Source: a virus (taxonomy: Duplodnaviria > Caudoviricetes). From it: 42,956 nucleotides of DNA. This document shows, one piece after another, positions 1 to 36,389 of the stretch; position 1 is the stretch's first letter, and every line of letters begins with the position of its first letter. Made by a program: the position numbers and the translations under genes. Location of the stretch: the IMG/VR virus record IMGVR_UViG_3300048670_000236, positions 1-42,956 of that record. One strand, given 5' to 3'. Under the pieces are notes generated by a model, which saw only the letters and a program-made list of their open reading frames with translations, was not told where the DNA came from and searched no databases.

Positions 1-127
1 GGCCACTGCCTGACGCACGAGGTATTCTGTATAGCGTTGCATGCGGTACCGGATGCCTTACGCAAAGAAATATGGCGACGAGTGAACCTTGTTGAGGTCC
101 AGTTCGCCGACAGATGGAGGAAGAGGA
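1..127. repeat. Terminal overlap of a circular contig (identical to 42830-42956)
   Basis: Bases 1-127 match 42830-42956; 127 is a common assembler k-mer and the overlap cuts through the RNAP 3' end. Confidence 0.95.
37..56. promoter_or_regulatory. Operator-like motif copy 1 (TTGCATGCGGTACCGGATGC)
   Basis: One of five similar 20-mers; lies just past the RNAP stop, over the start of the next ORF. Confidence 0.6.
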
Positions 128-2442
128 ACGTCAAAGCCTTTGGCCTGCAGTTCCGCAGCCAGCGCATGAAGCGCGGGCGTGGCGTGGATGGCAGCGAACG
201 CATGCCTCAACGTCGATGCCATTCGGTCGGCATCTGCGGCAAGGCAGAGATAGCTGTCATGCACGAACGCGAACACATCGACGCCCTGGTCGAGCAGTCG
301 ATGGATCGTGAACTTCACGTGCGCGGCGTCGAAGCTGTGCACGAAGTTGGGGCTGATGCCGTTGCGCTGGTTGAACGTCGAGACCTTGTCGGTCATTTCG
401 AACACCCTCGGACGGATGATGCTGCCCATCATCGATGTGCGTATCCGATAGGATTTCACATCGTTGTACTTCTGCTTCACGATCAGTCCTGTCGGTGCCG
501 TCCAGTAGATAGGCTGGGCACCGACCACGTCAGCCACCTGTCGCAGCCAATCCATCGCGGCACGAGCGGCGACAACAACCTTGTCGATGCTCTCCCAGAT
601 GATGTTGGCGAGATAGGTGATCGCCTCGTTCTCCCCGGCTTGAGGGAACGGACTGCCGCCCTTCGATGGTGCCACCTCGTTGAACCAATCACGGGTGTAC
701 CTGAAGCACGAGAAGCGGGTGCTGCCGTATGGCAGTGTCATGACCTGCCGCTTGGTGGCCTTGCGGTCCACACCAAACTGCAGCCACGCCGCTGCGATGG
801 CACTGGTGCCGGCGAGTTCCTTCAGCCTAGCCGTGACAACGTCTGCCACACGCTGGTAGATGTCAGAAGGACGAGGCGACGGTACAAGATTTGTCGCACT
901 GCCTCCAACAGGATCACGCAGCATGGCGCTAAAGTGCTGCAGCCCATTGCACGTACCATCCATTCCGATTGGCAGTACACTATCGGCGGATGGGTCTCGC
1001 TTGAGGCGGGCGTACTCGAAGCAGAACGCGAGGAACTGCCACGGGTTCTCTGCCCCCGACCAGTATGTGTCATCGAGTGGATGCTCCGCGCATTGCAGGA
1101 TGCGCTGTTCGTTGCGTTTGATGAAGTCGATGCGGGCGTCGAAGCTCTCCTTCGTCAGCCCGTTGTCCCACGAGTTGGCCCCGTGGATCATGAGCCATCG
1201 CCAGCCCGCCGCTGTTATCGGCTTGCCCTTCGAGAAGACGAGCAGCCCCTTCGCAGCATCGATGCCTTGCGGGTTCAGGTGCGGCACCAGCGGGTACATG
1301 CGGCCACGGAAGTCCATCGAGTACGGGAACCAGAACTCGTGGTCCTTGTAGTCGTGAGCCATGCGCTTGATCTGGTGCACGGTGATCCACTGTGCATCGG
1401 CCTCGCGCACCGCTTCGAACTTCCTGATGTTGGCAAGACGCTGGCGCGAACGCTCCTCGTCATCCATGTCATCGGTGAGCCTGACGTACTGGATGCCGTG
1501 CGTCTCCGCTGGCAGTGCCGAGATCGGGAGGCGTGCAGCCACCGCTTCTTCGAACACGTCCAAGACCTGGCGGTTGATGCGCCAGCCCACGTTCTGCATC
1601 GCGTTGACTGCATCGAGGACGAACTGGTTCATGCCGTTGATGTTGAGCGTCTCGGCGTCGTGCGTCTTGATCAGCGTGAGCGGGTTGACGTTGTCGGTGT
1701 GATAGCCGCCGCCCCAGTGGCTGGTCCACGGCTTCGGCGGGATCACTGTGGGCAGGTAGTCAGGCTTGACCTGCGCTGTCTGTAGCCAGTACTCGGCGAA
1801 CAGGTTGAAGGTCTTCGTCCGCAGCAGGTAGTGGGTCTGGCGTGTCCTCGACTTGACGATCTTGAACTCGTACCAGCCGGTGACTTCGGACAGTATCTCG
1901 ACCAGCTTCAGGCCCACACGTGTGCGGGTCGTGGCTGGCCACAACTGCATGGGTTCGAAGCCGTCCTTGGTTGCGGCCCATGTCACGAGGCCCTGCTTCA
2001 GGTCTTTGCTGTTGCTGCGGCGGGCCATGTCCCGCATCAGCTCGTCGTAGAGCTTGCGGTTGTGGGTGCGGAAACCCTCCAGCCACATCTCCCGCTGCAG
2101 GTTCGTGGCTATCCTGTTTGCGATCTTGACCATCGACAGCCCCGGCTTGTGCGAGACTCCCAGCACGGTCTTGATGGTGATGAAGGCGACCACATCAGGG
2201 TCGGCGTCGATAAGCACCACGCCCTCGGCGTGATACCGGCCAGCCTTCTGTGCCTTGATGTCCTCGATCCATTCGCGGATCGCCTTGGACACCTCGGTCA
2301 GGCTGTTCCTCAACATGGCGATACCGGCAGGGGTGTTGTTGAAGTCACCAGACTTGGTCGGCACCGAGAGGAGCTTTGTCTCCCTCGATGCAGCCATGTC
2401 CTGCTCGATACTGGCCTGCAGATTTGTGAGTTCAGGCTTCAT
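58..2442 (-). CDS. T7-like single-subunit DNA-directed RNA polymerase
   Basis: Motifs DFRGRMY, DGTCNGLQH, RKATKRQVMTLPYG, VHDS and C-terminal YFFA; start placed at ATG 2442 behind GGAG (ORF track extends to 2520). Confidence 0.97.
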   Translation of the reverse strand: MKPELTNLQASIEQDMAASRETKLLSVPTKSGDFNNTPAGIAMLRNSLTEVSKAIREWIEDIKAQKAGRYHAEGVVLIDADPDVVAFITIKTVLGVSHKPGLSMVKIANRIATNLQREMWLEGFRTHNRKLYDELMRDMARRSNSKDLKQGLVTWAATKDGFEPMQLWPATTRTRVGLKLVEILSEVTGWYEFKIVKSRTRQTHYLLRTKTFNLFAEYWLQTAQVKPDYLPTVIPPKPWTSHWGGGYHTDNVNPLTLIKTHDAETLNINGMNQFVLDAVNAMQNVGWRINRQVLDVFEEAVAARLPISALPAETHGIQYVRLTDDMDDEERSRQRLANIRKFEAVREADAQWITVHQIKRMAHDYKDHEFWFPYSMDFRGRMYPLVPHLNPQGIDAAKGLLVFSKGKPITAAGWRWLMIHGANSWDNGLTKESFDARIDFIKRNEQRILQCAEHPLDDTYWSGAENPWQFLAFCFEYARLKRDPSADSVLPIGMDGTCNGLQHFSAMLRDPVGGSATNLVPSPRPSDIYQRVADVVTARLKELAGTSAIAAAWLQFGVDRKATKRQVMTLPYGSTRFSCFRYTRDWFNEVAPSKGGSPFPQAGENEAITYLANIIWESIDKVVVAARAAMDWLRQVADVVGAQPIYWTAPTGLIVKQKYNDVKSYRIRTSMMGSIIRPRVFEMTDKVSTFNQRNGISPNFVHSFDAAHVKFTIHRLLDQGVDVFAFVHDSYLCLAADADRMASTLRHAFAAIHATPALHALAAELQAKGFDVPLPPSVGELDLNKVHSSPYFFA

Positions 2443-2514
2443 GTTTGCTCCGTAGTGGGAATATGGTCCCTCTTCGCCACAGCTTTTCGCCACATGCCCC
2501 GTCACGAGTGCGGA

Positions 2515-2534
2515 TTGCATGCGGTATCAACTGC
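2515..2534. promoter_or_regulatory. Operator-like motif copy 2 (TTGCATGCGGTATCAACTGC) upstream of RNAP
   Basis: Matches the repeated 20-mer; overlaps the IHF consensus. Confidence 0.6.
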
Positions 2535-2546
2535 TTGAAATCAAAG

Positions 2547-2574
2547 GAAAAGCCCGCTGTTGGGCGAGCTTTTC
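2547..2574 (-). terminator. Intrinsic, possibly bidirectional, terminator between att core and RNAP gene
   Basis: GAAAAGCTCGC-CCAACA-GCGGGCTTTTC hairpin followed by T-rich sequence on the minus strand. Confidence 0.7.
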
Positions 2575-2608
2575 TGAAACGGATACGAGGTCGGATAGAC
2601 CAGGTCTT

Positions 2609-2624
2609 GGGATTTTAAGTCCCT
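2609..2624 (-). mobile_element. attP common core AGGGACTTAAAATCCC (anticodon arm of a bacterial tRNA-Leu(UAA))
   Basis: Reads like the anticodon stem-loop of proteobacterial leuZ-type tRNAs; centred between arm-type repeat clusters. Confidence 0.78.
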
Positions 2625-3030
2625 ATTCCGCCGCCTCAACGGCAGGAAAGCTGGGGCTTTCGTCGCCGGGATCGCCCTGTGGGGCGTCATTCGCCACATC
2701 CTGTGGCGCTGTGGCGGCTGCGTCCTGCTCGTTGCGGACGCGGGCCGGAACCCAATCCGCCGGCAGTGCCGCCTTCATGTCATCGATCAGCACGCGCTGC
2801 TCGTTGATGGTCTTGATGGCGTTCTGCATCATGCTGCCCATCGACCGGAGCCTGACCTGCGTGCGGAGCAGCGCCGTGCGGGTCTCAAGGAAGGTGCTGA
2901 GCAGGAGCAGAAGCTCCTCGGGTACGACGGGGAAGGTCTGCCCTTCCGGGGTCTCGTCGGCAAGCTGGACCCACAGGAGGGCGGTGTCGGTCGAGAAGGT
3001 GGCAGGCGCAGTCGGTGTCTGTTCGGTCAT
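2623..3030 (-). CDS. Hypothetical protein (135 aa) coupled to integrase; C-terminus overlaps attP
   Basis: ATGA overlap with integrase stop; its stop codon overlaps the att core. Confidence 0.75.
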   Translation of the reverse strand: MTEQTPTAPATFSTDTALLWVQLADETPEGQTFPVVPEELLLLLSTFLETRTALLRTQVRLRSMGSMMQNAIKTINEQRVLIDDMKAALPADWVPARVRNEQDAAATAPQDVANDAPQGDPGDESPSFPAVEAAE

Positions 3031-4040
3031 TCAAGTACCTTTATGGCTTCGGTGTAGTTGTGTGGCGACAGATGTGCGTAGCGCATCGTGACGCTCACGT
3101 CGGAGTGACCGGCAAGCTCTTTGACGGTCACGAGATGCACTCCCCTCTGGACGAGGCGAGAGCAAAAGGTGTGGCGCAGGATGTAGGGGATGAACTGGTC
3201 ATCCGCCTCCAATCCCATCGCCGATTTCATGCGGTCCCAGTTCCCACGCAGTATCGCATACGAGTAGTCCGAGAAGAGACTGTTCGCGCGGCGCGTCAGT
3301 ACCTCCTGCGTGCGTGCGGTGAGCGGGATCATGCGGGACTTCTTCGACTTGCTCTGGCTCGGGTGCACCACGATGCCGGTGATCTTGCCATCGCGCATCA
3401 CGAGGTTGCTGGGTTCCAGTGCAAGGTGCTCGGAGCGGGTCCGCAGTCCGGTGTCCATGCCTACGATGATGAAGTCACGCAGCGCATCGAGGCCCATGTC
3501 TGAGGCCCACTGCAGCATGCGCTTCTCCTCACCCTCGGTGATGTAGCGGATGCGGTGCTCGCCTTCGGCAAGCTTCGGTATCTTGGGCATCTTCATGATG
3601 CCGCCGAGGTCCACATAGTGCTGCAGCATCTTGCTCAGTGCTGCCAGCTTGCGGTTCACGGTGCTCGTGCTGTTGCCCTGCTGCTTGAAGCGGGCGATCA
3701 TGTCGCGCACGGCCTGGTCCGTCACATCAGCGGGCGATACGTCCTCGCCGATGGCTTGCACGACCTGCTTGGCGTTGCCCACGAGGCTCTTCTCGGCACG
3801 CATGCCGTCCCAGTGGTCATCGGCAGTGCGCGTGCACAGCGCGGACATGGTCGCAGGCAGGCCAGAGGCCATCGCCACGACCGAAGCGGGCGAGCGGCCT
3901 GCCATGATGGCGGCTCGGCTTTCGAGCAGCCACTGATCCGCGGATGCCTTCGTCGCGAAGGTCACCCGCAGTCTCCCTCCCGGCAGGGAGGCGTGGTTCA
4001 AGACGGCTTGGAAGCTTCCGCCTCTCTGATATACTGGCAT
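3027..4040 (-). CDS. int: Tyrosine integrase
   Basis: DTGLR, K, LRHTF, LAGH and TMRY catalytic motifs; N-terminal arm-binding-like segment. Confidence 0.96.
   Translation of the reverse strand: MPVYQRGGSFQAVLNHASLPGGRLRVTFATKASADQWLLESRAAIMAGRSPASVVAMASGLPATMSALCTRTADDHWDGMRAEKSLVGNAKQVVQAIGEDVSPADVTDQAVRDMIARFKQQGNSTSTVNRKLAALSKMLQHYVDLGGIMKMPKIPKLAEGEHRIRYITEGEEKRMLQWASDMGLDALRDFIIVGMDTGLRTRSEHLALEPSNLVMRDGKITGIVVHPSQSKSKKSRMIPLTARTQEVLTRRANSLFSDYSYAILRGNWDRMKSAMGLEADDQFIPYILRHTFCSRLVQRGVHLVTVKELAGHSDVSVTMRYAHLSPHNYTEAIKVLE
4008..4035 (+). promoter_or_regulatory. Sigma70 promoter for the tRNA, antisense within the integrase 5' end
   Basis: TTGGAA (4008-4013), 16 bp spacer, extended -10 TGaTATACT (4027-4035), 13 nt before the tRNA. 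Confidence 0.7.
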
Positions 4041-4048
4041 CTCGATCT

Positions 4049-4134
4049 CCCTGCTTGGCGGAACGGTATACGCAGCAGACTTAAAATCTGCCGCTCGAAA
4101 GGGTATGTGGGTTCAAGTCCCACAGCAGGGACCA
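4049..4134 (+). tRNA. tRNA-Leu, anticodon UAA
   Basis: Acceptor CCCTGCT/AGCAGGG, discriminator A and encoded CCA; D arm with GG; anticodon arm GCAGA-CTTAAAA-TCTGC; long variable arm; T arm GTGGG-TTCAAGT-CCCAC. Confidence 0.96.
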
Positions 4135-4470
4135 TCACGCCAACGCATGCAGTTGGCTCAGCACCATCTTGCCCTTGTGTGTCAGTGCCACTTCCTTGTG
4201 CCTGCGATCCATCGGGTTCTCGCGAACCGTGATCAGGTCGAGCGCAGTGCCTCGGAAGTTGGCGAGTGCTGACAGGTTGCGCGAGACGGAGGATTGTGAC
4301 AGGCCCACCATCTCGCCGATCTGTGTCTGAGTCTTGCCCTCCCAGCGTGCCACGGCCAGGAATACCATGATCATCTGTGTCTCGATGCGTGGGTGCAGCG
4401 TCCTGAAGACGTTCAGGAACGCTGTCCACTTGTCGAAGCTACGTGTCGGTGACTCGTTCGGTTTATTCAT
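4135..4470 (-). CDS. MarR-like winged-helix regulator, probable immunity repressor
   Basis: HTH TQTQIGEMVGLSQSSVSRNLSAL and wing ENPMDRRHKEVALT.KG; GAGGA RBS before ATG 4470; adjacent to integrase. Confidence 0.85.
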   Translation of the reverse strand: MNKPNESPTRSFDKWTAFLNVFRTLHPRIETQMIMVFLAVARWEGKTQTQIGEMVGLSQSSVSRNLSALANFRGTALDLITVRENPMDRRHKEVALTHKGKMVLSQLHALA

Positions 4471-4507
4471 CGCGGTGTCCTCGCTAGAGCGAGGGTGCCG
4501 GGGTCCC

Positions 4508-4666
4508 TCACTCAATCATGATCTCGATGGGTCCCCAGTGGAACCATCGAACCCGGTCTGCAATGCTCATGCGTGGTAACGCTCCATACCCGGGCGATAC
4601 CACATAGCATGAGACTTCGCATGTGAATAGGCGAAAGTACGATACGCAGTGCCTGTTTACCGGCAT
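4508..4666 (-). CDS. Small hypothetical protein (52 aa, MPVNRHCVSY...GPIEIMIE)
   Basis: Translated manually; GAGGT RBS; lies between a TTGACA promoter and the repressor; below the ORF-track cutoff. Confidence 0.55.
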   Translation of the reverse strand: MPVNRHCVSYFRLFTCEVSCYVVSPGYGALPRMSIADRVRWFHWGPIEIMIE

Positions 4667-33600: not shown

Positions 33601-35553
33601 TCAGCGCACTGGACACACGCCCGAAACGCACTCGGTTTCGAGCAGGTCATCCGTGGACTTGACGGAGGAAGTGTTAACGGGGGCGAGGGTCTGGGAGTAC
33701 GCCCGCCACTCGGTCTCGGTAACCACCTCCTGCGGGAGGTAGGGGTAGCCGAGGTCGGCGGCACGCTTTGTCGGATCAGCCCGATAGATGAAGCTGACGC
33801 CCACGTAGCTGTCCCAGTTCTCGTTCAGCCAATCGATGATGCGGCTGACTTCGTGCTTGTCGTAGGACACCGTGATCGAGCAGTTGTGTTCGACGTAGTT
33901 GTCCATGACCATCTTGTACCGGTTGAGCTGGTCAACCGCGGAGTCGGTGTTCACGAGCAGACCGTTCTTCTCCGTGAACGAGACATCGTCCCAGCGAACC
34001 GGGAACGTCACGATCACGGCGGTCTTGTCCGTGGGATGCGCCATGATGCGGTACCCAGCGGCGGCAAGCTCGTGCACTATGGGGTCGTGCAGGCCAAACA
34101 TCACGTTGTTGAAGATGTGGGCACCGAGTGGCTTGTGAATGCCTTCGGTGGTGTCCATGATCTTCGAGATCGTGCCGCTCGGCTTGATCGTCGTGACAGC
34201 CTTGGGCATGGGCATGCCAAGCTCCTCGGCCATCGAGCGCGCCGCCCACTGCGCTTGGGCGTGAAGGCCCGCCCAGCGTGACGGATCGGCCTGATGCTTC
34301 CACCGCACGACGCCAGTGACGCCCACGCCGCACAGGCGTAGGAACTGGTTCAGCTCGTGCCAGCTCCGCTGCAGGATGCCGTCATCGAGGTTGACGCAGG
34401 TCTGCCGGTAGTTGGCGCGGGCCACCAGCCACACAGCGTCCTTCAGGTCGCCATAGCTGTTGTTGAACCGGCCAAGGTCAACCTCGACCAGATTGCAGAA
34501 GCTGCGGTTGCCGAGGAGAATCTCGGCGCACGGGTTCACGCCCTTGAACCACGGAGCACGTCGCGTGGCTGCTTCGGCGTTGATGAACCCCGGCTCGCTC
34601 CCGCCGCCCTGCTCCATCAGATCGAAGATGTCGTGCAGGTCGAACTTGCTGGGCTTCGAGTAGAACATCAGTGAGTTGTTCGACTGCGCGCGCTGCGGGT
34701 TGTTGACCCAGTAGTCCTTCTTGGCTGTTGCGAACTCGCGCCAATCCTTCGCGTTGGAGGGACAGAGTGCAATCTCTGCCGACCGGCGCGAGGACAGGAC
34801 GGTGCCTAGCCAGTTGAAGATGTCGAGCAGGTCCATGCGGGTGAGGAGCTGATCGACACGATTGTTCATGATACCCGCGATGGCCTCATACGCAGCAGCC
34901 AGCGGCCCGTAACCGGAGCTGATCCAGCCGTAGCCTTTGAGCCTGACACCCGAAGGCCTGATCTGCGAAAAGTCGATAACCAGTTTCGTCGCGGCATACT
35001 TACCGGCCAATATCTTACCGATAGATTTGGCCCAGGCTTCAGCGGAGTCTCCGATAGAGATGGTCCAAGTCGTGCCGTCAAAGGTCTCCACATTGTGTTC
35101 TCTGCCGCCCGCCTCCGTGCGGCTCGAAGGGATGACTTCGACAGTGACTCGCGAAGCAAAGCCGCTGAGTGCTCCTGTAACGGGTTGACCACCGACACCA
35201 CAGCCCTGCAGGAGTAGCCAAAGGGCATCGACAAAGTCGTGAACGGTTTCAAGACGGAGAAAGCTGCAGTTGAACTGCGAGGCTTCGCGGCGACGTGCAA
35301 TATCGGTACCGCCAAGCCAAAGCGATCTGCCGGCAGGTAGCGCCTTGCGCGAGATGAAGAGGTTGCGAAGAAGCTCAAGTTCGGTCTCCTGATTGCTGTT
35401 GAGGGGTTTCCCCTGCGCTCTCTCCCACAGCCATCGCTGGTGGGAGATCACGCGGGAGATCGTCTGTTCCCATGTCTCGAATTGTGTCCCCGCCTCGTTC
35501 GTGGGGCGTGAGTAGGTCCTGCGGGTGATGATGTTGGCGCGCGTTGTTGTCAT
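33601..35553 (-). CDS. nrdJ: Class II (B12-dependent) ribonucleotide reductase
   Basis: RRTYSRP, FNCSF, NPCAEI, TTIKPSGT and C-terminal CVSGVCP; no R2 subunit gene present. Confidence 0.92.
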   Translation of the reverse strand: MTTTRANIITRRTYSRPTNEAGTQFETWEQTISRVISHQRWLWERAQGKPLNSNQETELELLRNLFISRKALPAGRSLWLGGTDIARRREASQFNCSFLRLETVHDFVDALWLLLQGCGVGGQPVTGALSGFASRVTVEVIPSSRTEAGGREHNVETFDGTTWTISIGDSAEAWAKSIGKILAGKYAATKLVIDFSQIRPSGVRLKGYGWISSGYGPLAAAYEAIAGIMNNRVDQLLTRMDLLDIFNWLGTVLSSRRSAEIALCPSNAKDWREFATAKKDYWVNNPQRAQSNNSLMFYSKPSKFDLHDIFDLMEQGGGSEPGFINAEAATRRAPWFKGVNPCAEILLGNRSFCNLVEVDLGRFNNSYGDLKDAVWLVARANYRQTCVNLDDGILQRSWHELNQFLRLCGVGVTGVVRWKHQADPSRWAGLHAQAQWAARSMAEELGMPMPKAVTTIKPSGTISKIMDTTEGIHKPLGAHIFNNVMFGLHDPIVHELAAAGYRIMAHPTDKTAVIVTFPVRWDDVSFTEKNGLLVNTDSAVDQLNRYKMVMDNYVEHNCSITVSYDKHEVSRIIDWLNENWDSYVGVSFIYRADPTKRAADLGYPYLPQEVVTETEWRAYSQTLAPVNTSSVKSTDDLLETECVSGVCPVR

Positions 35554-35947
35554 TCTTTTCCTTGTTCCGTTCGAATAGGTTGCGATACCGCATGAGATAG
35601 AGCGCGGCTTCTCTCAATAGGTTCGGATCGTCGAAGAACTTTCCTAGACCTGTGTTACAGTTATGGCATAGCAGTGCCCTGCGCTTGCCGGTCGTGTGGC
35701 AGTGATCTGCGGCCAACCCCTTTCCAGTACTGCATCGTTTTCTGCATATCGCGCACTTGCCAGATTGAAGGGACAGTGCCGCTTCGTACTGCGCGTGAGA
35801 CCATCCGGTCTTATACTGCCTGACGTGTTGGTTGTTGCATTCAATGCAGTAGGGCTGCAGACCGTCCTTTGTTTTTTTGTGTTTATGGTAGCAACTCCGA
35901 AGACGGGAGCGTCCGCATTTGGGACAGAGCTTACGGCTGCTGCTCAA
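35375..35947 (-). CDS. Free-standing endonuclease VII-like homing endonuclease
   Basis: CPKC...CIEC, QSGKCAIC, DHCH, LLCHNCN; TTG start behind AGGAG; AT-richer than flanks. Confidence 0.85.
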   Translation of the reverse strand: MSSSRKLCPKCGRSRLRSCYHKHKKTKDGLQPYCIECNNQHVRQYKTGWSHAQYEAALSLQSGKCAICRKRCSTGKGLAADHCHTTGKRRALLCHNCNTGLGKFFDDPNLLREAALYLMRYRNLFERNKEKNDNNARQHHHPQDLLTPHERGGDTIRDMGTDDLPRDLPPAMAVGESAGETPQQQSGDRT

Positions 35948-36389
35948 GCCCCAACTCCTGCTGTTCAGGAGTGAATGAGTGCCCAACGCACGGATTGATT
36001 TTCACGACGTTGGTATAGGTTGGCATGCACGAGGTGAGGTCCGGGGCCTTGTAGTTCGGCCCCTTCATCACCTTGCCATCCGCACGCATGACCGGCTTCC
36101 CCGTTACCGGGGACAGTTTGGACATATTCGACTGATGCACCAGTTCGAAGGCGCGGTCGATGTTGATGCCCATCGCGATGGCAGTGCCGACGAGGACGTA
36201 GATCAGGTCTGCCATCTCCTTGGCGAAACCGTCAGACGGCTTCTCCAGATCGAGGCCTGCCGCTTCACTGCAGAACTCGGACCACTCCTCGCCGATGAGC
36301 TTCAGCCGCAGCCGGTACTCTTCGTCGGTCAGCTTGCGGGCGATGGGGTGGCCGAAGGCCTTGTGAAATTCAATGAGTTGCCAGTTCAT
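35931..36389 (-). CDS. MazG-like NTP pyrophosphohydrolase
   Basis: EFHKAFG, LIGEEWSE, KEMADLIYV, VHQSNMSK, DGKVMKG. Confidence 0.88.
   Translation of the reverse strand: MNWQLIEFHKAFGHPIARKLTDEEYRLRLKLIGEEWSEFCSEAAGLDLEKPSDGFAKEMADLIYVLVGTAIAMGINIDRAFELVHQSNMSKLSPVTGKPVMRADGKVMKGPNYKAPDLTSCMPTYTNVVKINPCVGHSFTPEQQELGLEQQP

Follow-up and report, generated by a model that had tools for sequence, protein, structure and literature searches.

Probable destruction of a host tRNA-Leu(UAA) gene by an integrating T7-like phage, and its replacement by a phage-borne tRNA-Leu(UAA)

The genome of a T7-like phage carries, on one side of its tyrosine integrase gene, a bare copy of the anticodon arm of tRNA-Leu(UAA) and, on the other, a complete tRNA-Leu(UAA) gene. 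We interpret this arrangement as destroy-and-replace integration, in which integration splits the host tRNA-Leu(UAA) gene and the phage tRNA-Leu(UAA) replaces it, and we put the probability of this reading at roughly 85%.

The window, by which we mean the whole stretch of DNA analyzed, corresponds to one virus record, 42,956 bases long, whose ends overlap by 127 nt. The phage DNA derives from freshwater metagenome runs and has a GC content of 60%. A PHROG scan of 45 ORFs revealed a T7-like gene set on the minus strand, with a single-subunit RNA polymerase (RNAP), replication genes and virion genes. In the phage direction, the module reads MarR-like gene, antisense tRNA-Leu(UAA), integrase (int), 135-aa ORF, core, terminator-like hairpin and RNAP; it therefore has features of a temperate T7-like module, namely a predicted attP between int and RNAP and a MarR-like gene and integrase upstream of RNAP. 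Its parts are listed below, with their conservation in a related phage, L244.

58..2442, minus strand: T7-like single-subunit RNA polymerase (PHROG 414, E 4e-220; Pfam RNA_pol)
2475..2494, minus strand: two putative arm-type repeats (TGTGGCG) between core and RNAP (exact in L244)
2525..2537, plus strand: match to the IHF consensus, WATCAANNNNTTR (sole match in the genome; region kept in L244)
2547..2574, minus strand: intrinsic terminator-like hairpin in the core-RNAP interval (hairpin and T run kept in L244)
2609..2624, minus strand: predicted attP core, the tRNA-Leu(UAA) anticodon arm AGGGA-CTTAAAA-TCCC (same position in L244, with CAA there)
2613-2619, minus strand: predicted overlap, the 7-nt loop (junctions of relatives share as little as the loop)
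2623..3030, minus strand: 135-aa ORF whose stop overlaps the core and whose 3' end holds arm repeats (43% identical to the L244 ORF)
2692..2716, no strand assigned: three putative arm-type repeats between core and integrase (exact in L244)
3027..4040, minus strand: tyrosine integrase, 337 aa (PHROG 1, PF00589)
4008..4035, plus strand: predicted tRNA promoter of the host sigma-70 type, embedded in the beginning of int but on the other strand (L244 has a similar extended -10)
4049..4134, plus strand: complete tRNA-Leu(UAA), CCA encoded, on the strand opposite to the phage protein genes (ARAGORN, Rfam)
4135..4470, minus strand: MarR-like winged-helix regulator, putative repressor (PHROG 9665, E 5e-22)

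The integrase, whose best named match is LUZ100 Int (39.8%), contains R200, K231, Y286 (instead of His), R289, H312 and Y321, and Y286 is invariant across 11 close relatives. The MarR-like gene scored 26.4 bits against Pfam MarR_2, just below the cut-off of 27, and a MarR-like gene occupies the same position in LUZ100, RHEph01 and HTVC119P. Pfam, PHROG and Atlas yielded no family for the 135-aa ORF.

The original prediction, made by reading the sequence, had placed a 16-bp core on the minus strand at 2609-2624, and we found that core, AGGGACTTAAAATCCC, at this position. The 11-mer GACTTAAAATC within it has exactly two occurrences in the genome, one in the core and one in the phage tRNA; when one mismatch was allowed, the shuffle mean was 0.08 and 0 of 100 shuffles reached two. 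Only the exact match is informative, because a looser motif, GAYTYARRW, is expected 6.7 times, and we dropped "Leu-loop motif only twice in genome" as a statistic. Clusters of arm repeats do flank the core, as had been claimed: the genome contains 17 copies of TGTGGCG, and 5 of them fall in a 242-bp stretch around the core (P ~5e-5). The claim of an IHF site near the core stood in part: there is a single match (2525-2537), weak by itself since 25 of 100 shuffles also yield one; its credibility comes chiefly from conservation in the nearest relative, L244.

Neither flank of the core was expected to rebuild a tRNA half, and we confirmed this with model junctions built with the halves of a real host gene, from genome G001, as a surrogate: the model attL, attR and attP gave no tRNA call, and the control attB was called. 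The classical feature of tRNA-restoring sites, a 5' or 3' half of the target tRNA at attP, is absent from the window. A candidate relic D-arm immediately 5' of the core, GGCGGAAT, was rejected, as it is not conserved in L244. The window's 16-mer occurs exactly in bacterial tRNA-Leu(TAA) genes of two phyla (29 of 150 and 7 of 48 among the matches listed, counted by eye), so that the core cannot predict the host, a use that had been suggested for a BLASTN search.

On the other side of int, both ARAGORN and Rfam identified one tRNA-Leu(TAA), at 4049-4134 (+), with a clean cloverleaf fold, in agreement with the claim of a complete tRNA. This tRNA had been described as sharing the loop of the core on a different stem; the CTTAAAA loop is indeed common to both, but only the outer three pairs differ, and GA-loop-TC is identical. 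The promoter attributed to the tRNA also has a counterpart, a predicted sigma-70-like site with an extended -10 at 4008-4035 (+). Promoter-like sites number 2 in the region versus 0.4 in shuffles, and the -10 of this one is largely kept in L244. The supply of UUA codons is not why the tRNA is kept, as the 32 ORFs of the window contain no TTA among 11,796 codons. The core, repeats, layout, intact tRNA and lack of tRNA halves at attP are thus plain features of this phage. The tRNA promoter lies inside int and points against the MarR-int transcript, and the likely integrase ribosome-binding site (GGGAG; 4038-4055) is the complement of the first bases of the tRNA; a comparable overlap of int start and tRNA is seen in L244, LUZ100 and RHEph01. 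Antisense or collision control of int by tRNA transcription is possible.

L244 is the sister of the window (integrase 67%, RNAP 55%); in a FastTree phylogeny of 63 integrases, the two were joined with a support of 1.0, and deeper nodes were weak. L244 retains exactly both arm clusters, together with the IHF region and the terminator, and the stop codon of its homologous ORF likewise overlaps the core. Its core, however, is AGAGA-CTCAAAA-TCT, and the homologous L244 tRNA also reads CAA, indicating that the anticodon changed together in core and tRNA. Between L244 and the window, the inverted repeat of the core has changed on both sides, and the tRNAs differ by compensatory stem changes as well as by the switched anticodon.

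To ask how widely core and tRNA agree in isotype, a check that had been proposed with the original prediction, we surveyed 322 sequences, the window and 321 retrieved loci, among which 270 were distinct. The filter, at least 120 nt after int plus an RNAP, MarR or tRNA-Leu gene, passed 129 of these; eight loci with an upstream antisense tRNA, in which the contig ends at int, were dropped, and downstream tRNA calls in L197 and L126 were set aside by hand. All 14 surveyed loci with an upstream antisense tRNA-Leu had exactly one core, with a matching anticodon and no 5' half. These loci form 12 clusters at 80% (6 CAA, 2 TAA and 4 TAG), and the match between core and tRNA anticodon has a permutation value of 7e-5 with kinship ignored. 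On the tree of 63 integrases, the isotypes were interleaved. A whole tRNA just after int was present at 48 loci, 29 of which had a matching core by a strict pattern (four plus a stray TAG-like match); by eye, the bare 7-nt loop was present in 18 of the remaining 19. None of the 13 loci with a 5' half at attP had a whole tRNA-Leu beside int. Restoring attP sites of the other type, with a 3' half, were found in L012, L231 and G982.

Because the strict core pattern was designed after early loci had been viewed, we inspected 80 additional loci found through RNAP. Among these, two new upstream-tRNA loci matched (L401, and L391 in sense orientation). Of the new downstream-tRNA loci, the six that had a core all matched, one of them showing an additional stray match, and in five others (L399, L400, L403, L408 and L409) the strict pattern found no core. 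Both the core and most of the tRNA have been lost from L310. In L394, a bare CAA core is accompanied by a broken tRNA, which could be explained if CAA tRNA-Leu genes are dispensable through wobble, as they may be. We rejected L119 and L121 as cases of a split gene lacking a phage tRNA, since both ends of G982 carry the 3' half, which marks this as a restoring type; for that reason L266, L153 and L197, for which only attR is available, were not counted as proof of non-restoration. Upstream of int, L089 (2761-3000) contains a whole tRNA-Leu(TAA)-like copy and a second one of which just the 5' half is left, fused to other sequence, as though something had inserted into the tRNA of the phage itself. 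In L002 (3084-3392), from a Ralstonia phage, an HNH gene sits at the attP position; int is present, and MarR and the tRNA are absent.

We then asked whether host genes are split in prophages of relatives. RNAP searches gave matches in 8 of 400 and 9 of 401 genomes, and prophage ends were taken from nine RNAP-matched genomes plus G001 and G003; G769 (no integrase match), G189 and six weak RNAP matches remained outside this set. Five genomes had both junctions and no restoration: G001 and G291 (TAA), G181 and G237 (CAA), and G705 (TAG). In each, the host 5' half lies at one end of the prophage and an orphan 3' half at the other, and the same-isotype matches to loop plus T-arm comprise only the phage tRNA and the orphan half, in genomes of unreported completeness. 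The G237 prophage ends lie on two contigs, and among the five prophages the exact tRNA position of the window is seen in G705 only. At the int-side junction of G181, G291 and G237, the match to the host gene starts only at the loop or one base ahead of it, and the crossover therefore falls within the loop. The G001 host arm holds the window's 16-mer exactly. In that prophage (G001:C11:112841-150575), the core is inverted relative to int, with the host 5' half at the int end and the 3' half at the RNAP end. The attP/attR pairs from free and integrated forms of the same phage also agree (L085/L086 and L289/L279). G378 served as a restoring control, with its tRNA-Cys restored, and G089 is a 3'-end duplication; the prophage ends of G308, G003, G337 and G641 were one-ended or had no resolved junctions. 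Most matches from a search of genome contigs were discarded because they were not T7-like modules, and a search of 401 genomes with a LUZ100-type integrase found no prophage.

Together, these data demonstrate that in relatives the crossover occurs in the loop, the host gene is split, the anticodons are matched, and the phage tRNA is the sole intact copy found. Junctions inside the phage tRNA, which had been named as evidence against the prediction, are not what relatives have: theirs are at the core, and the tRNA is whole. The proposed search for attL/attR junctions thus succeeded for the five relatives but not for this phage, as contigs assembled from four runs contained no joint at the core over 2000-4600, and no loose end at the core among those listed; contigs drop rare forms, three of the four runs may be the source of this DNA, and one run, X4, does not cover attP. 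In L336 (G237:C147), the anticodon arm of the host tRNA-Leu(TAG) is the same as the unusual arm of the RHEph01 phage tRNA. This host gene is either a natural variant or a domesticated phage gene, and the gene behind it is presumably trigger factor, judging from its first codons.

A single tRNA-Leu(TAA) was found in 164 of the 178 bacterial genomes with a match, and in 48 of 48 in the second phylum. As is well established, tRNA-Leu(TAA) is the only reader of UUA in bacteria and is essential. A bare tRNA-Leu core accompanied by a complete tRNA of the same type suggests that the host gene is likely broken and the cell likely kept alive. We propose that the tyrosine integrase would catalyze recombination between the host tRNA-Leu(UAA) anticodon loop and the bare 16-bp core, leaving two non-functional host tRNA halves, and that in the lysogen the phage tRNA-Leu(UAA), probably expressed from a promoter of its own, would stand in for the lost gene. 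Judging from gene order, integration would also separate RNAP from the int/MarR region, the upstream operon. For this phage, we infer that integration occurs, that the host gene is single-copy, and that the tRNA is expressed and required. The relatives support the attP identity, the tRNA-Leu target, the non-restoration and the same-isotype rescue put forward in the original prediction; stem recoding, which it also put forward, is not part of our best explanation.

The original prediction had regarded this phenomenon as new for T7-like phages. It had already been reported by Zhao et al. (bioRxiv 10.1101/410191), who describe a non-restored tRNA with a phage substitute in HTVC119P, HTVC200P, HTVC025P and HTVC019P. 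According to the same text, junctions of T7-like pelagiphages were sequenced, and HTVC119P and HTVC200P disrupt the host tRNA-Leu(TAA) without complementing it, the phage gene upstream of the integrase being "likely used instead". Like the window, these two phages have MarR, an antisense tRNA-Leu(TAA), integrase, a bare core and RNAP in the same order. Their integrases, however, are only ~32% identical to that of the window; they are marine, with a SAR11 host, whereas the window is from freshwater and has 60% GC; and the window has an extra ORF between int and core. The sequenced junctions are those of the pelagiphages.

Dependence of lysogeny on a phage tRNA was defined and tested by Guerrero-Bustamante and Hatfull (PMC10865867), whose actinobacteriophages Fionnbharth, LeBron and Gaia resemble the window in having a tyrosine integrase, no reconstruction of the target and a phage tRNA of the same isotype. 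Their cores comprise 8-17 bp in the anticodon loop, compared with 16 bp here, and there are pairs of relatives that differ in isotype, Gaia using tRNA-Leu(CAA). These phages belong to another phage group and integrase family, and there the requirement was shown by deletion; within the sources available to us, mycobacteriophages are the only phages for which an experimental test of the phage-tRNA requirement was found (PMC10865867). The available part of that paper contains no mention of pelagiphages. Of the features it sets out, the window has the integrase, the short core, the absence of a rebuilt tRNA (in models) and the same-isotype tRNA.

Two other phages share the layout of the window: LUZ100 (Pseudomonas), with a TAA tRNA and a bare TAA core after int, and RHEph01 (Rhizobium), with a TAG tRNA, unannotated in its record, and a TAG core. 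The tRNAs of both lack the loop-adjacent GA, whereas the window tRNA keeps it. In PMC10134795, the upstream tRNA-Leu of LUZ100 is read as an excision remnant, and no stable lysogens were obtained. Restoring attP sites of the same integrase family have the same crossover in the tRNA-Leu loop and the same place between int and RNAP as the window. They differ in carrying one half at attP (5', in 13 loci, or 3'), whereas the window carries none, and in having no whole tRNA next to int.

What is new here is the breadth of the pattern across temperate T7-like phages and the coupled switching of anticodons. Our findings extend tRNA-dependent lysogeny to many temperate T7-like phages, including the culturable RHEph01 and LUZ100, and probably correct the view, now in print, that the LUZ100 tRNA is an "excision relic". 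They also suggest a rule for finding att sites, which is to seek an anticodon loop matching the lone tRNA of the phage; searches for tRNA duplications miss such sites. As the phenomenon, isotype and layout are in print for pelagiphages, this is a useful generalization and would not surprise a specialist. Neither clade-wide co-switching nor stem recoding was the subject of any paper found in literature listings, which cover few subscription journals. A 2022 Virology survey of temperate T7-like phages may cover part of the clade-wide pattern.

We also considered a broader reading, in which core and replacement tRNA form a coupled, retargetable pair, the tRNA stem is selected against use by the phage's own integrase, and tRNA-dependent lysogeny is the default of the clade in Gram-negative hosts. 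On this reading, matched single-base changes would move a phage between host tRNA-Leu genes (TAA, CAA and TAG). We offer it tentatively and would sooner bet against it. Somewhat more doubtful still is its component that the stem was recoded so that the integrase cannot use the phage tRNA as an att target. In the window, such protection is unsupported, as the tRNA keeps GACTTAAAATC, 11 bp identical to the core, with the whole loop, and thus retains the predicted overlap and two nearly invariant pairs; the tRNAs of HTVC119P and HTVC200P likewise keep GA-loop-TC, and the G705 tRNA has 13 bp in common with its host arm. Across the family, however, the loop-adjacent GA/TC pairs were lost in 8 of the 12 upstream-tRNA clusters and in 4 of 6 TAA lineages, whereas host genes kept GA in 150 of 150 among the matches listed (by eye), and an estimated 460 viral matches were CA-type versus 8,800 GA-type (~5% CA-type). 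The window and L244 tRNAs each differ from their own core from the third pair outwards, but hosts show free variation at the outer three pairs, and the GCAGA/TCTGC arm itself is present in a bacterial genome, G912. Hosts too carry non-GA arms (3 of 48 in the second phylum, and the G237 TAG gene), and 78 of 80 CA-type viral tRNAs had no integrase match within 1.5 kb. PMC10865867 speculates that a phage tRNA could serve as attB. The loss of GA in 8 of 12 clusters, against 0 of 150 among the host matches listed, is at the family level a hint of recoding.

The module might instead derive from a tRNA-dependent system in a phage that no longer integrates or forms stable lysogens. The contigs contained no junction, the integrase has a His-to-Tyr change in its HxxR motif, LUZ100 gave no stable lysogens (PMC10134795), and the lytic-looking relatives L002 and L003 lack both tRNA and core. 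Yet every part of the module is intact and has a conserved counterpart in L244, no member of the clade departs from Tyr286, and HTVC025P, which integrates, is reported to carry the same substitution. We consider such a loss unlikely.

Still less probable is that the tRNA serves lytic growth, through codon supply or evasion of anticodon nucleases (the latter a published idea), and that it matches the core by coincidence. Phage tRNA-Leu(TAA) genes often lie at a distance from any integrase, and this tRNA could read the 62 UUG codons of the window; however, the 32 ORFs have no UUA codon, core and tRNA share their anticodon at 14 of 14 loci, the tRNA is absent where attP restores the gene, and it lies on the strand opposite to all lytic genes. 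Lytic use could be a secondary role of the tRNA. The least credible alternative, that the tRNA is a relic of imprecise excision or is itself the att site, was proposed for LUZ100 in PMC10134795 and draws on tRNA genes being integration hot spots, but it is largely refuted by the core junctions of relatives, which leave the tRNA whole, and also sits badly with the homology of the window and L244 tRNAs (compensatory stem changes, switched anticodon), with the difference between tRNA and host gene in lysogens, and with the position of the tRNA ~1.4 kb from the arm repeats in opposite orientation.

Elsewhere in the genome, a 608-nt group I intron at 29958-29351 (minus; Rfam RF00028, 52.8 bits) splits the major capsid gene between ...GKSA and QFPVLGR..., and an endonuclease VII-like ORF lies inside it (29794-29414). 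In a literature search judged by titles only, no title obviously described an intron in the capsid gene of a T7-like phage. A second endonuclease VII-like ORF overlaps the start of the ribonucleotide reductase gene (35375-35986 and 33601-35553).
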